Positions 86 to 12,287 of a stretch of DNA of 64,000 nt are shown piece by piece. Below the pieces are notes generated by a model. That model saw only the letters and a list, made by a program, of their open reading frames with translations, had not been told where the DNA came from and searched no databases. The DNA comes from an uncultured archaeon (GTDB lineage: Archaea > Iainarchaeota > Iainarchaeia > Iainarchaeales > 0-14-0-20-30-16), in NCBI GenBank assembly GCA_964595665.1, contig CAZQQS010000001.1, forward strand, positions 138-64,137. The letters are read 5' to 3'. The number at the start of each line of letters is the position of its first letter. Position 1 is the first letter of the stretch. Position numbers and translations under genes: made by a program.

Positions 86-3000
86 TTGGTTGAAGATTTA
101 AATTTGAATTTTGGTGAAAAAGTTGTTGAGAATAAACCTTTTCCAAAGAAGATATTAATTATATGTATTGCTGCATTTTTAGTAGTATTAACTGGTATTT
201 TGTTATTTGTTTTTGCATTTCCACATAAAACAAATGTAGATTTTGATTTTTATTTAAATAATAATAAAGTAAATGAAGATTTAACTGTATTATTTAGTTA
301 TGATGATAAAAATTTTGAAGTAAAAACAGTTAAAGATAAGTTAACTGTGAGTTTGCCTAAAAATAAAGACGTTTCTTTAGAAGTTTTAACTATTGGATAT
401 CAATATAAAAAGAGTTTTTTTATAGATGGTAGTAAATATGATATAAAAATTAATAAAGCAACAAGCATTGCTGAATTAGAAGGGGAACAGGAAATAGTTC
501 AATTTTATATTTATAAATATCCAAATACTACTCAAATATATAATAAAGATTTAATTTTTAACTTGACTTGTAATACTTCAAAAAAAACGGATATGGTTAA
601 AGTAAATGGCTCTTATTCATATACTAAACCAGATGATTGTGGAAGTTTATCGGTAAAATTAGTATCTGATGAGTTTAAACCTATAAATCAAACTTGTGGA
701 TCATTATGTAAAATTATCTTGTATGATTTTGTTGATGTGTCTTTAAATACTAAAGTTAATGATTACCGAAATAATATTTTGGTATTTGCGAAACAAAAAG
801 GAAAATCTGCTTTAGAAGATGTAACTGTTTCATTATATAAAGAGAATATTTTTGTAATTGATGGTTTAACGGATAAAGATGGATTAATTTATTTTACAAA
901 TTTATTGGTTGGAGATTATAAAATTGTTGGAAATTATAAAAAAGGATCAAAAAATTATCAAGCTATTCAAAATGTTAAATTAGAAAATTTAGAAAAAGAT
1001 TTAAATGTTAATTTAGAATTTAAAATAAGTTCTGGGTCTGGGAGTTCTGGAAGTTCAGGAAGTTCATCTACTAAAATTTTAGAAGATAATACTCATAAAA
1101 TATTAATTAAAACATATGACGACTATAATATTCCTTTTAGATATCAAATATATGCTGGTAAAGATCTTGTTGCAGAAGATGTTAATATAACTCCTTTTGC
1201 AACCGTAGATTTAGAGGATGGTAATTATTATATAACTATAATTCCTGAAATTAATAAAGATTTTAATAAAAATTACAACCCAGTTTTTTTAGAAGAAATT
1301 AATTTGGATTCTGATAAAACTATATCTTTAAGAAAATTAGATTTAAATTCAAATGTATTTTTATCTTTACCAACATATTTGGATTCTGATAAAAATACCA
1401 AATATAAAACCTTACAATATGGTGTTGATTTAAAAATTTATGACTTTGATAGTAATGTTATAATTTATGATTATGTTAATGTAACTGATGAAATTCACAA
1501 GTTTATTTTGGATAAATCTAAAAAATATATTATAAAAGCTGAGAAAAATAATTATTATAAAAGTGATATTTATGAGTTTAAAAATTGTAAGACTAATGAT
1601 TATGGCGTTTGTATTGATTCTTTAAGTATTTATTTAGAAAATAAATATTTGGAATTGCCAGTAAAGGTTTATTTTAAAAATATCCTAGTAAAGGATTATA
1701 ATTTATATTATTCTACAGACAATGAGCTTTGGTTAGAGTATAAAGATGTAAATCTTAACTATAATGTGCCCTATTATTTTAAAGTTAATGCTTTTACATC
1801 TATTGGTAAACGTATGAAGAAAATACATTATTATTCAGCACCATTAACTTTTAGGAAAAATGATTCGATATTGAATATTTTCTTAGATTATGAAAAAGAT
1901 AATTTTAAATTTTTAAATCCATTAATTAATTTAGGTCAGAGTGTTGAAGGTAATTTCTTTTTAGATGATAAACTTACTAAAAAAATATCTAATAATCTAA
2001 ACATATTTAGAAAATATTATTTGCCAATAAATATGTATGCTAATAATACCCAATCTTATTATGTTGATTTTAATAATGTTGATGTATATTTAGATTCGGA
2101 GTCACTTAATACTTCTTCCATATCTAATTTGGAATCTTTAGTTGCGAATAATGATTTAGGGGATATAAATGCAAAACAAAAAATACCTGGCTCTCAAAAA
2201 TATTATGAAGTTATTTATATAAAACAATATATTTATGAAGTTATTCCTCAAGGATCGGATTCGGGTTTTTTATCTTTGAATAAAAATTTGCGCCCAATAA
2301 TAGATAATAATTATTATGCGAGAGTTGATTTTAATATTTTAGCACCATTGGAAAATATTTTAGATTTGAATTATAATTTAAATAAAGTAGTGAATAAAGA
2401 TTTTTACTTATTTAATAATGAAATATTGCAAGGTGTTGATCTTTACTCTTCAGTTTTAGAATTATATCCAAAATATAGGTCTAAATTTACAAATTATATT
2501 TATTTGGATTCTAATGTAAAAGATCAAGATTTTAATATTGATTTATCTTTGTATATTCCTAAAAAATATTTTAATTGTAAAATCTTATCTGAAAACTATT
2601 TTAAAATAAATTTGTTTAATAATAATTTTAAAATAATTGATGATTATTTGAATTTGAAAGTAGATTTAAATTTAGATTATTTTAAACATATATCAAAACC
2701 TATAGAATACTCAAATAATTTGAGTTTAAATTTAGATTGTGATTATTTTGTTTCAACCCCTATGCCAAAACGAAGTGTTAAAGATAATATGTCTTTACAA
2801 TCAATAGATTTATTTAAAGCAATAAATTTTGTAAATAGTTTTCAAAAATTACCTGCTATAAATTTGTTAAATAGAGGCGTGAATTTGGAGAATTTAAGTT
2901 CTAGTTCAAAAGGATCTGTGAAAAGAAGTACATCGAGTGTTAGTAATCCAGATTTAAATGTGGTAATTCCATTAACATTTTATATTGTAGATGACTCTGC

Positions 3001-3370
3001 ATTTTACAATGAATTATTAGGTTGTTTTAATATATCTTTAAATGGTAATAATTATTTGGAATATATGTTATGCTCTTCGGCATTAGATAATTTAATTTTA
3101 GAAGATGTTAATGTAAGCGTAAGTAATAATTGTAAGGGTTCTAGATTGTATGTGAATGATAGTTATATTGATGAAACTTATATTGAGGATTTAAAAGGCG
3201 CTTGTAATGCATATACCTGTGCTGTAAAAATAAATTACTTAGGGAAAGATTTTGAATGGAAATTTAGAACTTATTCTCAAGATGCTTCTTATATCTCAGT
3301 AGATTATATCCCAGTAGATGATAATTTTTTGCCTAGAGATATAGCACTTCCTAAAGCAAATATAAACTAA
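86..3370 (+). CDS. large cell-surface protein (N-terminal signal-anchor TM helix, Ser/Gly linker, N-rich ectodomain with many N-x-S/T sequons; S-layer/adhesin-like)
   Basis: 1094-aa ORF; hydrophobic helix at aa 21-45; SSGSGSSGSSGSSS linker; no recognisable enzymatic motif. Confidence 0.45.
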   Translation: MVEDLNLNFGEKVVENKPFPKKILIICIAAFLVVLTGILLFVFAFPHKTNVDFDFYLNNNKVNEDLTVLFSYDDKNFEVKTVKDKLTVSLPKNKDVSLEVLTIGYQYKKSFFIDGSKYDIKINKATSIAELEGEQEIVQFYIYKYPNTTQIYNKDLIFNLTCNTSKKTDMVKVNGSYSYTKPDDCGSLSVKLVSDEFKPINQTCGSLCKIILYDFVDVSLNTKVNDYRNNILVFAKQKGKSALEDVTVSLYKENIFVIDGLTDKDGLIYFTNLLVGDYKIVGNYKKGSKNYQAIQNVKLENLEKDLNVNLEFKISSGSGSSGSSGSSSTKILEDNTHKILIKTYDDYNIPFRYQIYAGKDLVAEDVNITPFATVDLEDGNYYITIIPEINKDFNKNYNPVFLEEINLDSDKTISLRKLDLNSNVFLSLPTYLDSDKNTKYKTLQYGVDLKIYDFDSNVIIYDYVNVTDEIHKFILDKSKKYIIKAEKNNYYKSDIYEFKNCKTNDYGVCIDSLSIYLENKYLELPVKVYFKNILVKDYNLYYSTDNELWLEYKDVNLNYNVPYYFKVNAFTSIGKRMKKIHYYSAPLTFRKNDSILNIFLDYEKDNFKFLNPLINLGQSVEGNFFLDDKLTKKISNNLNIFRKYYLPINMYANNTQSYYVDFNNVDVYLDSESLNTSSISNLESLVANNDLGDINAKQKIPGSQKYYEVIYIKQYIYEVIPQGSDSGFLSLNKNLRPIIDNNYYARVDFNILAPLENILDLNYNLNKVVNKDFYLFNNEILQGVDLYSSVLELYPKYRSKFTNYIYLDSNVKDQDFNIDLSLYIPKKYFNCKILSENYFKINLFNNNFKIIDDYLNLKVDLNLDYFKHISKPIEYSNNLSLNLDCDYFVSTPMPKRSVKDNMSLQSIDLFKAINFVNSFQKLPAINLLNRGVNLENLSSSSKGSVKRSTSSVSNPDLNVVIPLTFYIVDDSAFYNELLGCFNISLNGNNYLEYMLCSSALDNLILEDVNVSVSNNCKGSRLYVNDSYIDETYIEDLKGACNAYTCAVKINYLGKDFEWKFRTYSQDASYISVDYIPVDDNFLPRDIALPKANIN
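1915..1949 (+). repeat. 35-bp exact repeat, copy 1 (inside surface-protein gene); copy 2 at 13693-13727
   Basis: AAATCCATTAATTAATTTAGGTCAGAGTGTTGAAG identical at both loci; encodes NPLINLGQSVE in both ORFs. Confidence 0.7.
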
Positions 3371-3425: not shown

Positions 3426-4709
3426 TTGGTAAATGAATTTGCCAAGAAGGGGGTTGTTTTGGTAAATGAATTTGCCAAAACGCTTATAAACCCTTTGTTT
3501 GTATATATAATTATGGGTTTTATAGAGAATTTGCTGTCTATTAGTAATGAAGCTAAATTGAAGGCTTCTAAATATATAAAAAAAAGGTTTATTTTTGAGA
3601 ATGTAAAGAAAATTAATAAATCAAACTTATTTGTAGGTATTGCTGGTTTAAGAGGTGTTGGGAAAACTATTTTATTATTACAATTAGCATTAGAAAATAA
3701 AGATAGTATATATATTAGTTTAGATTTATTAAAAGAAAAATTTGATTTGTATGAATTAGTTAAAGAGTTAAATCAGAAATATGGTTTAAAATATTTTTAT
3801 TTGGATGAAATCCATAATTATTTAGCTTGGCAACAAGATTTAAAGAAGATATATGAGTTGTTAAAAGTAAAATTAGTATTTACATCTTCAATTGCAATAG
3901 AAGTTATTGAGAGCAAATATGATTTGAGTAGAAGAGTAAATATTGTTAAAATGTATCCTTTTTCATTTAAAGAGTTTTTGTATTTCAAAATAAATGAAAA
4001 TATTGATTTAGATTTTAAAAAAATATTCGATTATGATTCTAATAAGATTTTGATATATCAAGCTTATTATCAAGAATATATTTCTGGTGGTTCATTGCCT
4101 GCAAGTTTTGAATCGGAGTCAGGAATAATAATCCCAAATATTTTAGATAAAATAATTCATAAAGATTTGGTAGCAATTAAAAAATTAGGTCAAGAAGATA
4201 TTTTTAATCTCAATCAAATGTTAAAATATATTGCTGGTAATCCTATTGAAATAATAGGATATTCAAATATTTCTAAAAACCTAGGTATTAGTAAGTATAA
4301 AGTACAACAATATTTAGAACACTTAGAAAAAGCATTTGTTATAAATATAATTTTTCCTAACACTAGAAATGTTTTAAAAGAGCCAAAGATTTTGTTTTCT
4401 TTACCTTTTAGATATTTTTTAGCAAAAGATTCAAATGAAGATTTTGTTGTTGGCGCTTTAAGAGAAGATTTTTTTGTTTTTCAAAATGTAATAAAATCTA
4501 ATAAAATATATTATTTAAAAGATAAGAAGGGTAAAAAATTACCAGATTATTTGGTGGTTATAAACAATGAAAAATATATTTTTGAAATTGGTGGGAAAAA
4601 TAAAAGTAATAAGCAAATTGTAGAGGTGTCTAATAAAATAAAATCTTATTTAGTTCAGAATCCATTGGGTAGAGATGATGCATTGCCATTAATTGCATTT
4701 GGGTTTTAA
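3426..4709 (+). CDS. AAA+ ATPase of the COG1373 (AAA_14 + DUF4143) family
   Basis: Walker A GIAGLRGVGKT, Walker B-like LDEIHN; TTG start; 20-bp direct repeat at 5' end makes the true start ambiguous. Confidence 0.6.
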   Translation: MVNEFAKKGVVLVNEFAKTLINPLFVYIIMGFIENLLSISNEAKLKASKYIKKRFIFENVKKINKSNLFVGIAGLRGVGKTILLLQLALENKDSIYISLDLLKEKFDLYELVKELNQKYGLKYFYLDEIHNYLAWQQDLKKIYELLKVKLVFTSSIAIEVIESKYDLSRRVNIVKMYPFSFKEFLYFKINENIDLDFKKIFDYDSNKILIYQAYYQEYISGGSLPASFESESGIIIPNILDKIIHKDLVAIKKLGQEDIFNLNQMLKYIAGNPIEIIGYSNISKNLGISKYKVQQYLEHLEKAFVINIIFPNTRNVLKEPKILFSLPFRYFLAKDSNEDFVVGALREDFFVFQNVIKSNKIYYLKDKKGKKLPDYLVVINNEKYIFEIGGKNKSNKQIVEVSNKIKSYLVQNPLGRDDALPLIAFGF

Positions 4710-4747
4710 TTACCGAAATGTATTTATATATATAAGTAATATGTTTT

Positions 4748-5104
4748 ATGATTAGTATGTTTGATATTATGCAATTGTTTTTGGGAGAGTTTTTTTCAGA
4801 TATGGGGTTCATATTGAGAATTTTCTTATTAGTTGCGGTTTTAGGATTCATAAATCAACATATTGAGAATAAAATACTAAAAACAGTAGTTGCAATTTTT
4901 ATGCTTTATATTACGGTATTTATAGACTGGAAAGTTTATGGAATATTGTATTTTGTATATGCAATATTGGGAATGGGAGTTTCAAGTATTGTAGTTGATT
5001 ATTTCTTTATGAGTAATATGAGTGGTGGACACGAAGCTCCACAAGCCCCAGATCCAATGACTCAAGCTATGGGTGCTATGGGAAAAAGACCTGGAAAGTT
5101 TTAG
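4748..5104 (+). CDS. small 3-TM membrane protein, paralogous array member 1 (Gly/Ala/Met/Pro-rich C-tail)
   Basis: hydrophobicity pattern; tightly packed same-strand array; no family recognised. Confidence 0.4.
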   Translation: MISMFDIMQLFLGEFFSDMGFILRIFLLVAVLGFINQHIENKILKTVVAIFMLYITVFIDWKVYGILYFVYAILGMGVSSIVVDYFFMSNMSGGHEAPQAPDPMTQAMGAMGKRPGKF

Positions 5105-5112
5105 GTGATTAA

Positions 5113-5457
5113 ATGAATGATAAAGGGGTAGTATTATATATTTTAGGAGTTGCTTTCCTAATAGTTTTTGTTATGCCTTTTTTATTAATGCATTTCTACT
5201 CTATGAGTAAGATTTTATTTCAGGTTATTTTGGTATTCTCAATTATAGGATATGTAAGACAAATGGGCTTAGATGGCGCTTTAATGTGGATTGTCTCAGG
5301 AGTATTAATATATTTTATTGTGTTTAAATATATAACATTATTTACAAGTTTGTATGTATTAATGTTATTAATGGGCTTTGGTTTTACATCTGCAATTATG
5401 TGGGGAAGTAATACTTTGAAAACAAAAATAATGAGTATGAAAGCAAAACATGCTTAA
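5113..5457 (+). CDS. small 3-TM membrane protein, array member 2
   Basis: SD GGTGA 6 nt upstream; TM pattern similar to neighbours. Confidence 0.4.
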   Translation: MNDKGVVLYILGVAFLIVFVMPFLLMHFYSMSKILFQVILVFSIIGYVRQMGLDGALMWIVSGVLIYFIVFKYITLFTSLYVLMLLMGFGFTSAIMWGSNTLKTKIMSMKAKHA

Positions 5458-5468
5458 GGGGTAATTAA

Positions 5469-5711
5469 ATGAATACAATGCTATTAGAGGTAGTTTTAGG
5501 AACAATTTCCGGGGATATTTGGTTTGGATTATTTTTATTTTTGGCTGTAATGGTTTATGCCTGGTCTAAAAAAGAGTTGGGAGATCCTAAAATAGCTATT
5601 ATTTTTGTATTAATTTTAGCAGTAATTGTATTGAATCATACAGAGTTTGTGTGGGTTATTATAGGTGCATATCTGTTTATAACTTATGGAAAGCAGATAT
5701 TTAAGGTGTAA
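5469..5711 (+). CDS. small 2-3-TM membrane protein, array member 3
   Basis: hydrophobic, same spacing pattern (TM-W-TM...G). Confidence 0.4.
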   Translation: MNTMLLEVVLGTISGDIWFGLFLFLAVMVYAWSKKELGDPKIAIIFVLILAVIVLNHTEFVWVIIGAYLFITYGKQIFKV

Positions 5712-5713
5712 AT

Positions 5714-6049
5714 ATGGATTTGTTTACCTTTGCGATATCTTTATTAATCATGTTAGTTAGTTTTGAGTATAATTATACTTGGTTAGCAGTATTAATAGGA
5801 ATAGTTTTAATATTTATGGGTAAGCAAAAGAGTATATTTATAATTGTTTTGATCTTATTAATAATATTATTCTTTATAAAAGGAACCCCATATGAGAGTT
5901 ATAATGTATGGGTAGTAGTATTAGCTATAGGGATATATTTATTGTTAAATAGAAAGGAACAAGGTTCTTCCGATACATATAATCCAGAAGATCAGTATGG
6001 TGATCTTTTAAAAGGATTAGGTGGAGGAGCTGGATTAGGTGGAATGTAA
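5714..6049 (+). CDS. small 3-TM membrane protein, array member 4 (Gly-rich C-tail LKGLGGGAGLGGM)
   Basis: hydrophobic; 2-nt spacer to previous gene. Confidence 0.4.
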   Translation: MDLFTFAISLLIMLVSFEYNYTWLAVLIGIVLIFMGKQKSIFIIVLILLIILFFIKGTPYESYNVWVVVLAIGIYLLLNRKEQGSSDTYNPEDQYGDLLKGLGGGAGLGGM

Positions 6050-6394
6050 GTGAAATTTGTATTTTTTATAATTGGATTAGTAGTAATGTTAGGAGCTATG
6101 TCAAATCCTAGTTTATTATATGTTGGTTTAGTTATAATGGCTTTATCTTTCTTATTTTCAACTAGTAATGAAAAATCTATTACTAAAATTGAAGATAGAG
6201 TATCAATTATAGATAAATTAGATAAAGTAAACTTTAATGTTTCTGATAACGCTATATCTAATTTGGTTGAAGATGCTATGGCAGTTACTGCAAAAATAAC
6301 TAAAGGCGCTAAACCAGATATCAGTGCTAAAAATGTTGCTGTAGGAACAATAAAAATGGTAGATAATGTAGGTTCTGTTTTTAAAAGTAAATAG
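6050..6394 (+). CDS. small secreted/membrane-anchored protein with N-terminal signal peptide-like helix, array member 5
   Basis: N-terminal hydrophobic segment followed by a soluble K/D-rich domain. Confidence 0.35.
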   Translation: MKFVFFIIGLVVMLGAMSNPSLLYVGLVIMALSFLFSTSNEKSITKIEDRVSIIDKLDKVNFNVSDNAISNLVEDAMAVTAKITKGAKPDISAKNVAVGTIKMVDNVGSVFKSK

Positions 6395-6412: not shown

Positions 6413-7093
6413 TTATTTTGGTTTTTTTATTTTTGGCATAATCCTTCTAACTGGCTTAGGTCTTATAGTTTGTTTTAAAGATTTTCTTATATGAACATAT
6501 CTTTCAAATAAATCATTTATTACTCTTTGAGGTAAATCTCTTTGTTTAGCTAATTCTAATTGTTTATTTAATTCTGAAAGTTCATATAATAATACAAGTT
6601 CTCTTGCTTTTCTAGGATTTATGTTTTTTTGCCTAATAAGTTCTTTTAACAGTTTATCAGTAGCTATTTCTGTATGGCTTCCAGTAGAAGTTAACTCTTC
6701 CAATGCTTTGATTTGCTCAGAAGTTAATTGTCTTCCAACATTATTATTTATTGAATTATTTATAGTTTCAAAAAATGTTTGAAAATCAGATATTGGTTTT
6801 CTAAGAAAAGTCAATCCAGGAATATCAATTTTAGGATTATCTTGCCCAGATACAACTAATATTGGAGTTTTTCTTGCCAAAGATCATTCTAAAAAGTGTT
6901 TAATTAATTTAGGATTATATCCTTTAAAATTAGCATCACTTAAAACTAAATCAAAACTTTATCTTTCAAATATCTCTAATGCATCTTTTGGATTATCACA
7001 TAAAACGATTTCATGATGGGTATAATTAGCAAACAAATCTTCATAAAATTGTAATAATGATTTATTATCATCAACTATTAATATTTTTGCCAT
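6413..7093 (-). pseudogene. CheY-like response regulator (receiver + ~110-aa C-terminal domain) interrupted by two in-frame stops (TAA at 6959-6961, TGA at 6884-6886)
   Basis: Translating the minus strand from ATG 7093 gives MAKILIVDDNKSLLQFYEDLF...DALEIFER*SFDLVLSDANFKGYNPKLIKHFLE*SLARKTPILVVSGQ with no frameshift. The standard code is used elsewhere, since r-protein genes end in TAA/TGA/TAG. Confidence 0.5.
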
Positions 7094-10588: not shown

Positions 10589-11872
10589 CTAAAACTCAAT
10601 ATTGATTTCTTTTTCATCTTTTTTCTCTGTTTTGATTTTATGCTTTTTAATATAATCGATAACAAATATAACTATTAATATTAATACTAACCCAATTGCA
10701 ATTATCCAAAGTATATTTAATTTATTATCCTCTTCAGTTGTATTTTGGATATATTGATAATTATTTGTATTTACATCTAAATATCCTTGTTTTATTAAAT
10801 TTAATCCAAAATCAATTAATGTTGGAATTTGTCTTGCAGAGCTTTTATAATTTTTATTTTCATAATCTGTAATCATTTCATTGTATTTGGTAATAAATAT
10901 ATTTGTTTCTTCTTGATTTTTCCATTGTGCTTTTTGATTTATTATATAATCAAATAATTCTTTAGCATTATTTATTTTTTGTGCTTTTACAATTTTCTCG
11001 TTTTTTTCAAAATATGGTTTTAAAAAGATTATCTTTTCAACTCTTGCGTTCCAATTTTCTAATAATTTATCTATAGTGTTTACTTCTTCAGAATATTCTT
11101 TCATACTTTTTAATTTTAAATAAATTGTTTTTAATTTTGCATTATATTTTGGAATTTCTTCTAATTCTTTTGGTAAGAGTAAAATATTGTTGCCAATATT
11201 ACTTTTTGCTTCTGCAGAAATATTTGCATCTAATAAATTCATTTTTAATTCAAAAATAGATTGATCTAATAAACTTAATATTTCTAATGTTTTATTTACA
11301 TTAGTTTCTAAGTTTGTAGCGGTATTACTTAAATTATTAATATTTGAATATTCTTTTTTAGTATATGAATCCAAATCATTTAATTCTTTAGATATGTCTA
11401 AACTAACTTCACCTAAATCTTTTGTTCTTGTTTGAATATTTGTTAAACCAGTAATAATATCTTTTTCATTAGGCCAATTTTGGGTTAATTGTATTTTTGT
11501 TAAATCTAATTGATAATTAAAACTATCTGTTGTTTTTGGGATTGTTTGATAAAAATAAATTAAATTATAAGTATCAAAAGTTTCTAAATTTAAAAAATAT
11601 AAATATGTTTTCACAACTGTTTTGTAGGTATCTTGAGAAACAAGATTTTCTGAATTGGTATCTTGTATAATTAATAATTGGTTATTTGAGGTTTCTAAAA
11701 CCCAGTAATTTTTAGAATATTTTATTTCTGTAGATTTTAAAATAGTTTCATTATCTAAAGGATTTAATAAATAAGATTCAGATGCAAATTTATTAACTTC
11801 ATTTACATTTAATGCAGAAATATTAAATAAGAAAAATAAAATTAAAATTATTGGAAAAATTCTTCTAAACAT
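10589..11872 (-). CDS. secreted coiled-coil protein with N-terminal signal peptide and C-terminal TM anchor
   Basis: N-terminal hydrophobic segment; C-terminal LNILWIIAIGLVLILIVIFVI TM helix; Asn/Lys-rich. Confidence 0.35.
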   Translation of the reverse strand: MFRRIFPIILILFFLFNISALNVNEVNKFASESYLLNPLDNETILKSTEIKYSKNYWVLETSNNQLLIIQDTNSENLVSQDTYKTVVKTYLYFLNLETFDTYNLIYFYQTIPKTTDSFNYQLDLTKIQLTQNWPNEKDIITGLTNIQTRTKDLGEVSLDISKELNDLDSYTKKEYSNINNLSNTATNLETNVNKTLEILSLLDQSIFELKMNLLDANISAEAKSNIGNNILLLPKELEEIPKYNAKLKTIYLKLKSMKEYSEEVNTIDKLLENWNARVEKIIFLKPYFEKNEKIVKAQKINNAKELFDYIINQKAQWKNQEETNIFITKYNEMITDYENKNYKSSARQIPTLIDFGLNLIKQGYLDVNTNNYQYIQNTTEEDNKLNILWIIAIGLVLILIVIFVIDYIKKHKIKTEKKDEKEINIEF

Positions 11873-11873
11873 A

Positions 11874-12287
11874 TTAATCCTTTTTTAATAATTCTTTAAT
11901 TTGTTTATAAGTAACATATTCTAAAGGATTTATTGCATCAACTAAGTATTTTATTTCTTGAAATTCTTTTCTTGTAATATAATCTGATTTAGAATTATCT
12001 ATTTTATTTACAACTTCATCAATTTCCTGCCTTATTCCAGAAATTTTATTATATAATTCAGAAATTTGTGCTTTTATTGTATCCAATTCTTCAAAACTTT
12101 GTGTGCTTTTATTTATTTCAGAAGCATTATTTAATTTATCTTCTAATTTTTTAATTTTTTCATTTAATACTAAAATGTTTTGACTAAGAATTTTTTCATT
12201 TCTAACTAAATATCCAATTTTTTGAGATAAAAGCATAATTGTTGCATTAATTGCTTTTACATTTGTGTTTGCTACATCTTCAGGCAT
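11874..12287 (-). CDS. small coiled-coil protein
   Basis: heptad-rich 137-aa ORF, 1-nt spacer to downstream gene. Confidence 0.3.
   Translation of the reverse strand: MPEDVANTNVKAINATIMLLSQKIGYLVRNEKILSQNILVLNEKIKKLEDKLNNASEINKSTQSFEELDTIKAQISELYNKISGIRQEIDEVVNKIDNSKSDYITRKEFQEIKYLVDAINPLEYVTYKQIKELLKKD

Follow-up and report, generated by a model that had tools for sequence, protein, structure and literature searches.

The DPANN archaea are tiny, mostly uncultured cells in which envelope building and cell contact are largely obscure, and in which most conserved genes are unannotated. In a stretch of 64,000 nucleotides (nt) from an uncultured member of the Iainarchaeota (the window; contig CAZQQS010000001.1 of GenBank assembly GCA_964595665.1, positions 138 to 64,137), five short open reading frames (ORFs), designated S1 to S5, follow each other in close succession at positions 4748-6394, in the neighbourhood of a gene for a large surface protein. 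What such a row of small genes encodes, how widely it is conserved, and with which other functions it is associated are the questions that this locus raises. The analysis described here establishes that the array is conserved at about the level of the phylum among Iainarchaeota-type DPANN archaea, and that the module fits none of the described families or systems that were tested. Tentatively, and at somewhat less than an even chance, we propose that S1-S5 jointly make up the integral-membrane part of a single hetero-oligomeric envelope complex, which works together with giant, N-terminally anchored surface proteins.

All five ORFs are located on the forward strand, at 4748-5104 (S1, 118 amino acids [aa]), 5113-5457 (S2, 114 aa), 5469-5711 (S3, 80 aa), 5714-6049 (S4, 111 aa), and 6050-6394 (S5, 114 aa), and successive ORFs are separated by 8, 11, 2, and 0 nt. 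The layout given in a preliminary description of this DNA, i.e., five same-strand ORFs of 80-118 aa with gaps of 0-11 nt, was thereby borne out. Each of S2, S3, S4, and S5 is preceded at 5-10 nt by a ribosome-binding site of the GGTG/GGGG type. As the orthologues of S1 begin at its second ATG (4757, 'MFD...'), the true start codon is probably located there, giving a protein of 115 aa. A TATA-like box, TTTATATATATAA, can be read from the forward strand at 4724-4736, about 20-30 nt upstream of the S1 start codons; because this position matches the usual placement of archaeal promoters, the box is probably the promoter from which S1-S5 are transcribed, with a transcript that has no leader or almost none. 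A scan for bacterial promoters and terminators yielded nothing exceeding shuffled sequences, its models being bacterial and not applicable to archaea.

Hydropathy analysis revealed 3-4 transmembrane (TM) segments in each of S1-S4, in agreement with the multi-TM nature initially ascribed to four of the proteins, and two such segments in S5, followed by a polar domain of approximately 75 residues. The topology was predicted from the counts of Lys and Arg across the families, on basis of the positive-inside rule, which suggests three TM segments with the N-terminus outside and the C-terminus inside for S1 and S3, and four TM segments with both termini inside for S2 and S4. S5 is a fast-evolving protein consisting of a TM hairpin and a soluble helical domain of approximately 75 aa, the latter being predicted at the C-terminus on the cytoplasmic side. 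The soluble domain that had been assigned to this fifth protein was thus retained, but its supposed signal peptide was not, the protein having two hydrophobic segments (a TM hairpin) and no cleavable signal peptide. The predicted extracellular loops comprise 0-9 residues only, and the Lys and Arg counts place the conserved loops and tails of S1-S4 all on the side of the cytoplasm.

These loops and tails carry most of the recognizable motifs. S1 has a conserved NQHIENK loop, predicted to be cytoplasmic, a VDYFF motif, and a disordered, G/Q/M/P-rich C-terminal tail that is likewise predicted to be cytoplasmic. S2, the best-conserved member of the array, has a conserved N-terminus (MN-x-[KR]-G), a cytoplasmic R-x-x-L-G-x-G loop, an invariant Lys at a TM boundary within LIYFLV-K-Y, and a W-G close to the end of TM4. 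Its N-terminal motif was considered as a possible class III signal peptide of a type IV pilin, an assignment that was rejected because S2 crosses the membrane with three more TM segments and has its predicted C-terminus in the cytoplasm; no pilus genes were found in the conserved cluster. Conserved in S3 are a W-A-K-x-x-L-G loop and a C-terminal F/Y-G-K motif, and in S4 an MDL-x-x-F start, an invariant Trp, and the acidic/aromatic tail motif [DE]-P-Y-[AG]-G-LL-G-G, which is kept throughout the whole S4 family and precedes a stretch rich in Gly (32%) and Met (8%). The two proteins with Gly/Ala/Met/Pro-rich tails that had been noticed in the bare sequence are S1 and S4. Monomer predictions with AlphaFold2 (AF2) added little: the model of S2 (18 sequences) reached a pLDDT of 71 and a pTM of 0.34, which is too poor for fold comparison, and that of S5 (3 sequences) was unusable at a pLDDT of 48. 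A Foldseek search of the S2 model, itself poor, against the PDB returned noise only (E ≥ 4).

The array had been presented as a set of paralogues. Pairwise BLASTP among S1-S5 was unconvincing by itself, and family profiles were needed to recognize the homology of S1, S2, and S3. Alignment of these profiles with hhalign related S1 to S2 with a probability of 98% (E 1.7e-13, 75 columns) and S1 to S3 with 95% (E 3e-8); the score of S2 with S3 was weaker (49%). S4 and S5, which are of like composition and served as internal negative controls, remained below 6% against S1-S3. Moreover, the S2 seed hidden Markov model (HMM) cross-matched distant S1 proteins, the S2 profile pulled in proteins located at the S1 position, and single-linkage clustering of BLASTP matches also backed the kinship of S1, S2, and S3. 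In the alignment register TM1-3 of S1 correspond to TM2-4 of S2. On basis of the hhalign results the array thus consists of three paralogues (S1, S2, and S3) and two unrelated small proteins (S4 and S5), so that the claim of paralogy is valid for three members of the array. In distant lineages S4 is followed by a gene designated c3, which is equivalent to S5 by profile alignment (77%, E 2e-5, 113 columns).

Database searches recovered 10 homologues of S1 (53-88% identity, with invariant polar motifs) and 18 of S2 (56-100% identity); among all these homologues, two carry the label 'hypothetical protein'. The same five genes are found in the same order in the related loci L002, L005, L010, and L012, and the polar motifs are strongly conserved in each protein. 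Compared with these orthologues, pS amounts to 0.40-0.76, i.e., synonymous sites are near saturation, and pN/pS ranges from 0.29-0.49 (S1), 0.30-0.35 (S2), 0.34-0.42 (S3), and 0.29-0.36 (S4) to 0.34-0.60 (S5). Ratios of 0.29-0.60 at near-saturated pS indicate that all five genes are under purifying selection. A metagenome scan yielded 80 loci. Once their ORFs had been called and assigned with HMMs, the array was recognized in 74 distinct loci, and its order S1-S2-S3-S4 is constant as far as the contigs extend; S4 was detected in 65 loci. The family is encountered in genomes of 25-53% GC, with S2 identities down to about 30%. The records of L010, L012, and L095 are labelled 'Candidatus Diapherotrites archaeon', which equals Candidatus Iainarchaeota of the kingdom Nanobdellati (DPANN). 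Consequently, absence from relatives and lack of coding constraint, two outcomes that could have counted against the array, were not encountered, and the lineage-specific membrane module that had been suspected is a conserved membrane module, but is lineage-specific only at about the level of the phylum.

A search with the S2 profile among 1.84 billion representative proteins retrieved only 31 relatives, each of 68-154 aa, and no fused versions were seen among them. Since all of these are small, S2 belongs to a small family of stand-alone subunits and not to the fragments of larger proteins. A scan of viral contigs detected no relatives of the array proteins, and the inheritance of the array looks single-copy and vertical, in housekeeping surroundings that include a ribosomal-protein operon, PolB, and methionine aminopeptidase.

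The genes that accompany the array were defined by clustering all neighbouring ORFs. The extended arrangement is complete in three loci with 10-kb flanks (L095, L097, and L099), where its order is a giant protein, c2, S1-S2-S3-S4-S5/c3, c4, c5, c6, PolB, and methionine aminopeptidase. The first giant protein (2,750-3,250 aa) and c2 (2,397-2,487 aa, just 5' of S1) are encoded as tandem pairs, at 1-9618 in L095, 1-9902 in L097, and 1-9943 in L099, and are paralogues with 25-31% identity across approximately 650-830 C-terminal residues. c2 is a giant surface protein with a short cytoplasmic N-terminus, one TM segment, and a huge ectodomain that contains immunoglobulin (Ig)/prealbumin-like domains, its Pfam matches being weak and of the CarboxypepD_reg/SpaA/SdrD_B type. 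The second giant of each pair carries the N-terminal motif K[DE][FL]YYS-x-E[DE][KR][WY]Y, the N-termini of the upstream copies being outside the fetched loci. A same-strand gene of the c2 family precedes S1 in 26 of the 29 loci that include at least 1.5 kb of upstream sequence, and the link between array and surface protein that had been surmised from the window alone has thereby become a positional rule. Downstream sequence of 4.2 kb or more is available for 21 loci, of which 16 have S5/c3, 14 have c5, 14 have c6, and 12 have c4. In one lineage (L060, L064, L082, and L083) only c2-S1-S2 stay together, in a locus without S3, S4, S5, c4, or c5, and because this lineage keeps just these three genes, the linkage between surface protein and array is the tightest of the cluster. 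In these four loci, c2-S1-S2 is directly followed by genes for a bacterial-type HU and for a DUF1846 protein.

Among the remaining members of the extended cluster, c5 (approximately 500 aa, two genes 3' of the array; for example at 8057-9538 in L072 and 12148-13704 in L095) is similar in sequence to the HerA ATPase core of the HerA/FtsK superfamily. Its profile matched YjgR (1.2e-4) and Sulfolobus HerA (4d2i; 4.4e-4) in the PDB, as well as TdpA and STIV B204, and Pfam DUF87 was matched with E values of 1e-3 to 9e-3. The Walker A GK[ST] is missing in all 14 aligned c5 proteins and the Asp of Walker B is replaced by Pro, the equivalent positions reading, e.g., GQ-GNALNY and hhhP[EDN]A. As both Walker motifs are replaced, we infer that c5 is a catalytically dead pseudo-ATPase. 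c4 (approximately 170-220 aa) and c6 (approximately 160-175 aa) are coiled-coil proteins encoded on the opposite strand that have a KILE-x-N-R-K-IL-like helix in common, and their profiles gave generic coiled-coil noise only when compared with the PDB. Scans of c2, c3, c4, c5, and c6 against Pfam, NCBIfam, PHROGs, and PADLOC yielded nothing consistent except the weak DUF87 match of c5 and the Ig/prealbumin-like matches of the big proteins. Conservation of c6 extends to all array-carrying lineages, in which it usually adjoins PolB. Among the small number of enigmatic families that a 2019 survey (PMC6393860) lists as specific to DPANN is 'an alpha-helical protein in house-keeping context', and c6 could be a candidate for this protein.

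In the window itself, the array lies downstream of a gene for a protein of 1,094 aa (86-3370, forward strand) and of a gene for an AAA+ ATPase (3426-4709, forward strand), as had been described. The former is an Asn-rich surface protein with an N-terminal TM segment, and it has weak prealbumin/SpaA-like matches at a similar distance from this segment as in full-length c2. No sequence homology was detectable between this protein and c2, the large protein of L005, or the first giant, and the N-terminal motif of c2 was not found in it; it is therefore the counterpart of c2 by position only. The sole large protein that weakly matches the C-terminal motif of c2 is the one encoded upstream of the array in L010. 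A six-frame HMM search of the whole 64 kb found c6 (1.7e-54) and no c2, c4, or c5. The ATPase (AAA_14, 6e-22; DUF4143, 4e-11), initially listed among the neighbours of the small proteins, has a match to PDC-S01 (1.1e-28), a defence-gene candidate of PADLOC. It occurs only in the window and, reduced to a C-terminal remnant, in L012, and between the big protein and S1 it is absent from L005 and L015. Its absence or decay in relatives and its PDC-S01 match indicate that it is a sporadic insertion of a defence candidate and not a partner of the module.

The impression that the small proteins belong to no known family has been confirmed: S1-S5 matched no family in Pfam, NCBIfam, PHROGs, or PADLOC, the 31 S2-like and 39 S4-like relatives gave no consistent family match in Pfam and NCBIfam, and profile searches of S2 and S4 against PDB sequences produced no real matches. 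Moreover, literature searches on DPANN dark matter, archaeal secretion and membrane neighbourhoods, and DPANN cryo-electron tomography turned up no account of the cluster.

From gene context and sequence features we infer that the array proteins physically assemble, that they have the topology outlined above, and that they serve the anchoring or assembly of the giants. In the complex proposed here, S1, S2, and S3 together with S4 would form a membrane-embedded platform that exposes almost nothing outside the cell; at its cytoplasmic face it would display the conserved loops together with the S5 domain and the Gly/Met-rich tails of S1 and S4. This platform would take up or hold the N-terminal signal-anchor of the giant proteins and thereby anchor them, assemble them, or help in their insertion and export. 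In addition, it might tie the giants to cytoplasmic scaffolds, i.e., to c6 in all lineages and, in most lineages, also to c4 and a ring of the catalytically dead, HerA-like c5. The tight spacing and overlaps of the genes and their ribosome-binding sites, which are typical of co-translated subunits of a complex, support this proposal, as do the constant gene order in 74 loci, the giant gene upstream in 26 of 29, the lineage with only c2-S1-S2, the family-wide S4 tail motif, and the purifying selection on all five genes. The arrangement resembles that of the surface-layer (S-layer) pairs of Sulfolobales (SlaA/SlaB), in which a huge surface-protein gene is likewise followed by membrane-protein genes on the same strand. 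Unlike the proteins of these pairs, the giants described here own an N-terminal TM anchor, and the small proteins are nearly all intramembrane or cytoplasmic. The 3-TM core of S1-S3, with a conserved basic residue at a TM boundary and conserved cytoplasmic loops, and the flexible Gly/Met-rich cytoplasmic tails of S1 and S4 recall the Oxa1/YidC/DUF106 insertases, which combine a 3-TM core with cytoplasmic loops and Met-rich elements; the EMC3_TMCO1 and YidC models of Pfam were matched by neither the window proteins nor the S2-like relatives.

Several observations weigh against a complex of this kind. The contacts among S1-S5 and with the surface proteins are deduced from genomic neighbourhood and primary structure, and the monomer AF2 models of S2 and S5 are uninformative. 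The 50-100 nt between c2 and S1 and the promoter-like box that S1 has of its own imply that co-transcription of surface protein and array is not required. Furthermore, the 1,094-aa protein of the window is not detectably homologous to c2 and is without its motif, c4 and c5 are absent from the 64 kb, and the small extracellular loops offer little surface for holding an ectodomain.

The rival explanations draw on part of the same data. Transport is often carried out by assemblies of several 3-4-TM subunits, and the array resembles the small subunits of Mrp/Mnh complexes (MrpB, C, E, F, and G), which also form a run of 80-160-aa proteins with 2-4 TM segments; the likeness in sizes and TM counts is superficial and extends to one member with a TM hairpin and a soluble domain, as in MrpE. 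S1-S5 might thus be the small subunits from which a transporter or channel is built, its substrate being ions, lipids, or a metabolite, and the adjacency of the surface gene would then be a conserved accident of gene order. We consider this unlikely, even though the conserved polar loop residues, the invariant TM-boundary Lys of S2, and the persistence of the array without c4 and c5 in the clade of the window would agree with it. None of the transporter families in Pfam or NCBIfam was matched by the 5 window proteins or the 31 S2-like and 39 S4-like relatives, and no match near the gathering scores of MnhB, NuoK/MnhC, MNHE, MrpF, and PhaG/MnhG was obtained, the lone trace being that of the L013 S3 protein with MNHE (E 0.023). 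In about 35 long loci the conserved neighbours include no MrpA/MrpD-like large subunits, nor does any other large subunit of antiporter or ATPase type accompany the array in a conserved manner, and Mrp families have been reported to be absent from DPANN (PMC9258230). In addition, ion-coupled transporters use acidic residues within the membrane, and none that is conserved was seen here, and the linkage to the giant surface proteins persists over very divergent genomes. The presence of c5 brings to mind a machine for the translocation of DNA or protein, such as the type IV secretion system (T4SS)/Ced (VirB4/CedB with VirB2/B3/CedA1/A2), the type VII secretion system, or the packaging vertex of PRD1/STIV, in which the array would be the conduit, c5 the cytoplasmic ring, and the giants the cargo or the outer part. 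Small membrane proteins are combined with a HerA/FtsK hexamer in T4SS/Ced and PRD1/STIV, and the extended cluster joins 2-4-TM proteins, a HerA-like protein, and large surface proteins in most lineages, where the conservation of c5 two genes 3' of the array and its matches to HerA-family structures and DUF87 speak for such a role. Gly/Met-rich elements contact unfolded or hydrophobic segments in GroEL (the GGM tails) and in SRP54 (the Met-rich domain), and by analogy the tails of S1 and S4 could contact such segments as well. However, as none of the 14 aligned c5 proteins has Walker A or Walker B, c5 is excluded as the motor; the cluster includes no further conserved ATPase, and c4 and c5 are missing from the window altogether. 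The array is, moreover, chromosomal and vertically inherited and not carried by mobile elements or viruses, neither the array proteins nor their S2- and S4-like relatives match the VirB2, VirB3, TrbC, or VirB6 families of Pfam, and the conserved cluster holds no polytopic protein (at least 6 TM segments) comparable to VirB6 or CedA, which renders a translocation conduit rather improbable.

A scaffold for cell division or envelope remodelling, in which S1-S5 would recruit c4, c6, and the ring of the inactive HerA-like protein and the proximity of PolB would reflect a core role in the cell cycle, is an explanation to which we attach little probability. It is in line with the housekeeping context and the apparently single-copy, vertical inheritance of the array, and with the conservation of two coiled-coil proteins that have a helix in common. 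Iyer et al. (2004), as cited in PMC4158269, are the source for a historical connection of the HerA/FtsK superfamily with division and segregation. FtsZ, SepF, and ESCRT/Cdv are, however, not part of the cluster, c4 and c6 yield no profile matches beyond the generic noise of coiled coils, and a scaffold would not explain why the array is so tightly linked to the giants. Finally, a bacteriocin/immunity-like set had been suggested, and a holin-like set, cargo of a mobile element, or the fragments of a decayed larger membrane-protein gene may be considered as well; in the window, the run of short TM ORFs beside an ATPase of defence type would agree with them. These readings are very improbable. 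The gene order is kept in 74 loci within a core chromosomal context and under purifying selection, no matches in PHROGs and PADLOC and no relatives in viral contigs were found, and the ATPase is not conserved with the array; the stand-alone relatives of S2, none of which was seen as a fusion, argue against gene decay.

The other features of the window place this module in its genomic surroundings. The window has approximately 25% GC and encodes an archaeal ribosomal-protein operon, a TYW1-like protein, a DRG-type GTPase, a CofD/YvcK-like protein, VKOR, and RpiA. The skew of G over C on the forward strand is strong, at about +0.3, where genes are encoded on that strand and is reversed at 54-58 kb, where they are on the reverse strand; as its sign follows the gene strand, it reflects a coding-strand compositional bias. 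The c6 protein of the window (11874-12287, reverse strand) is a coiled-coil protein of 137 aa with the motif LVRNEKIL...INPLE, and of the cytoplasmic members of the extended cluster, it alone has stayed close to the array in the clade of the window as well. Its gene forms a pair, conserved in this clade, with that of c12 (10589-11872, reverse strand), a secreted, coiled-coil-rich protein of 427 aa with a C-terminal TM anchor. Converging on S5, and separated from the end of the array by 18 nt, is an ORF of 155 aa (6413-6880, reverse strand) with 215 nt of non-coding DNA upstream. In L005 the corresponding position is taken by a protein of 271 aa that weakly matches Response_reg, and in view of this longer protein and the non-coding stretch the ORF may be a truncated response-regulator-like gene. 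Upstream of the array, a 20-nt near-palindromic box, TTGGTAAATGAATTTGCCAA, occurs twice (3428-3447 and 3460-3479, 12 nt apart), overlapping the called start of the ATPase gene and located just 5' of a TATA-like element and an ATG at 3514, which is probably the true start of this gene. The two boxes look like operator sites and are regarded as candidates for such.

Returning to the envelope complex proposed for S1-S5, a wider version appears possible rather than likely: the five proteins may be the membrane core of an undescribed multi-component envelope apparatus that is characteristic of Iainarchaeota-type DPANN archaea and comprises two tandem giants, S1-S5, two coiled-coil proteins, and a dead HerA-like ring. 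Made of families that the searched reference libraries do not contain, it could serve as the base on which an organelle for attachment or of the cell surface is built, or else be a new export or anchoring system. The data provide a concrete core of five genes, and an extended set of 9-10 genes, that is tied to the largest surface proteins of these cells across divergent genomes. Except for the degenerate HerA-like protein, all families of the cluster are uncharacterised, and they offer experimentalists a defined set of targets. Moreover, c5 adds an example of a HerA/FtsK-type protein without Walker motifs that is retained in a membrane-associated gene cluster. If it is true that the complex anchors or exports the giant proteins, it would represent a new type of archaeal envelope machinery.

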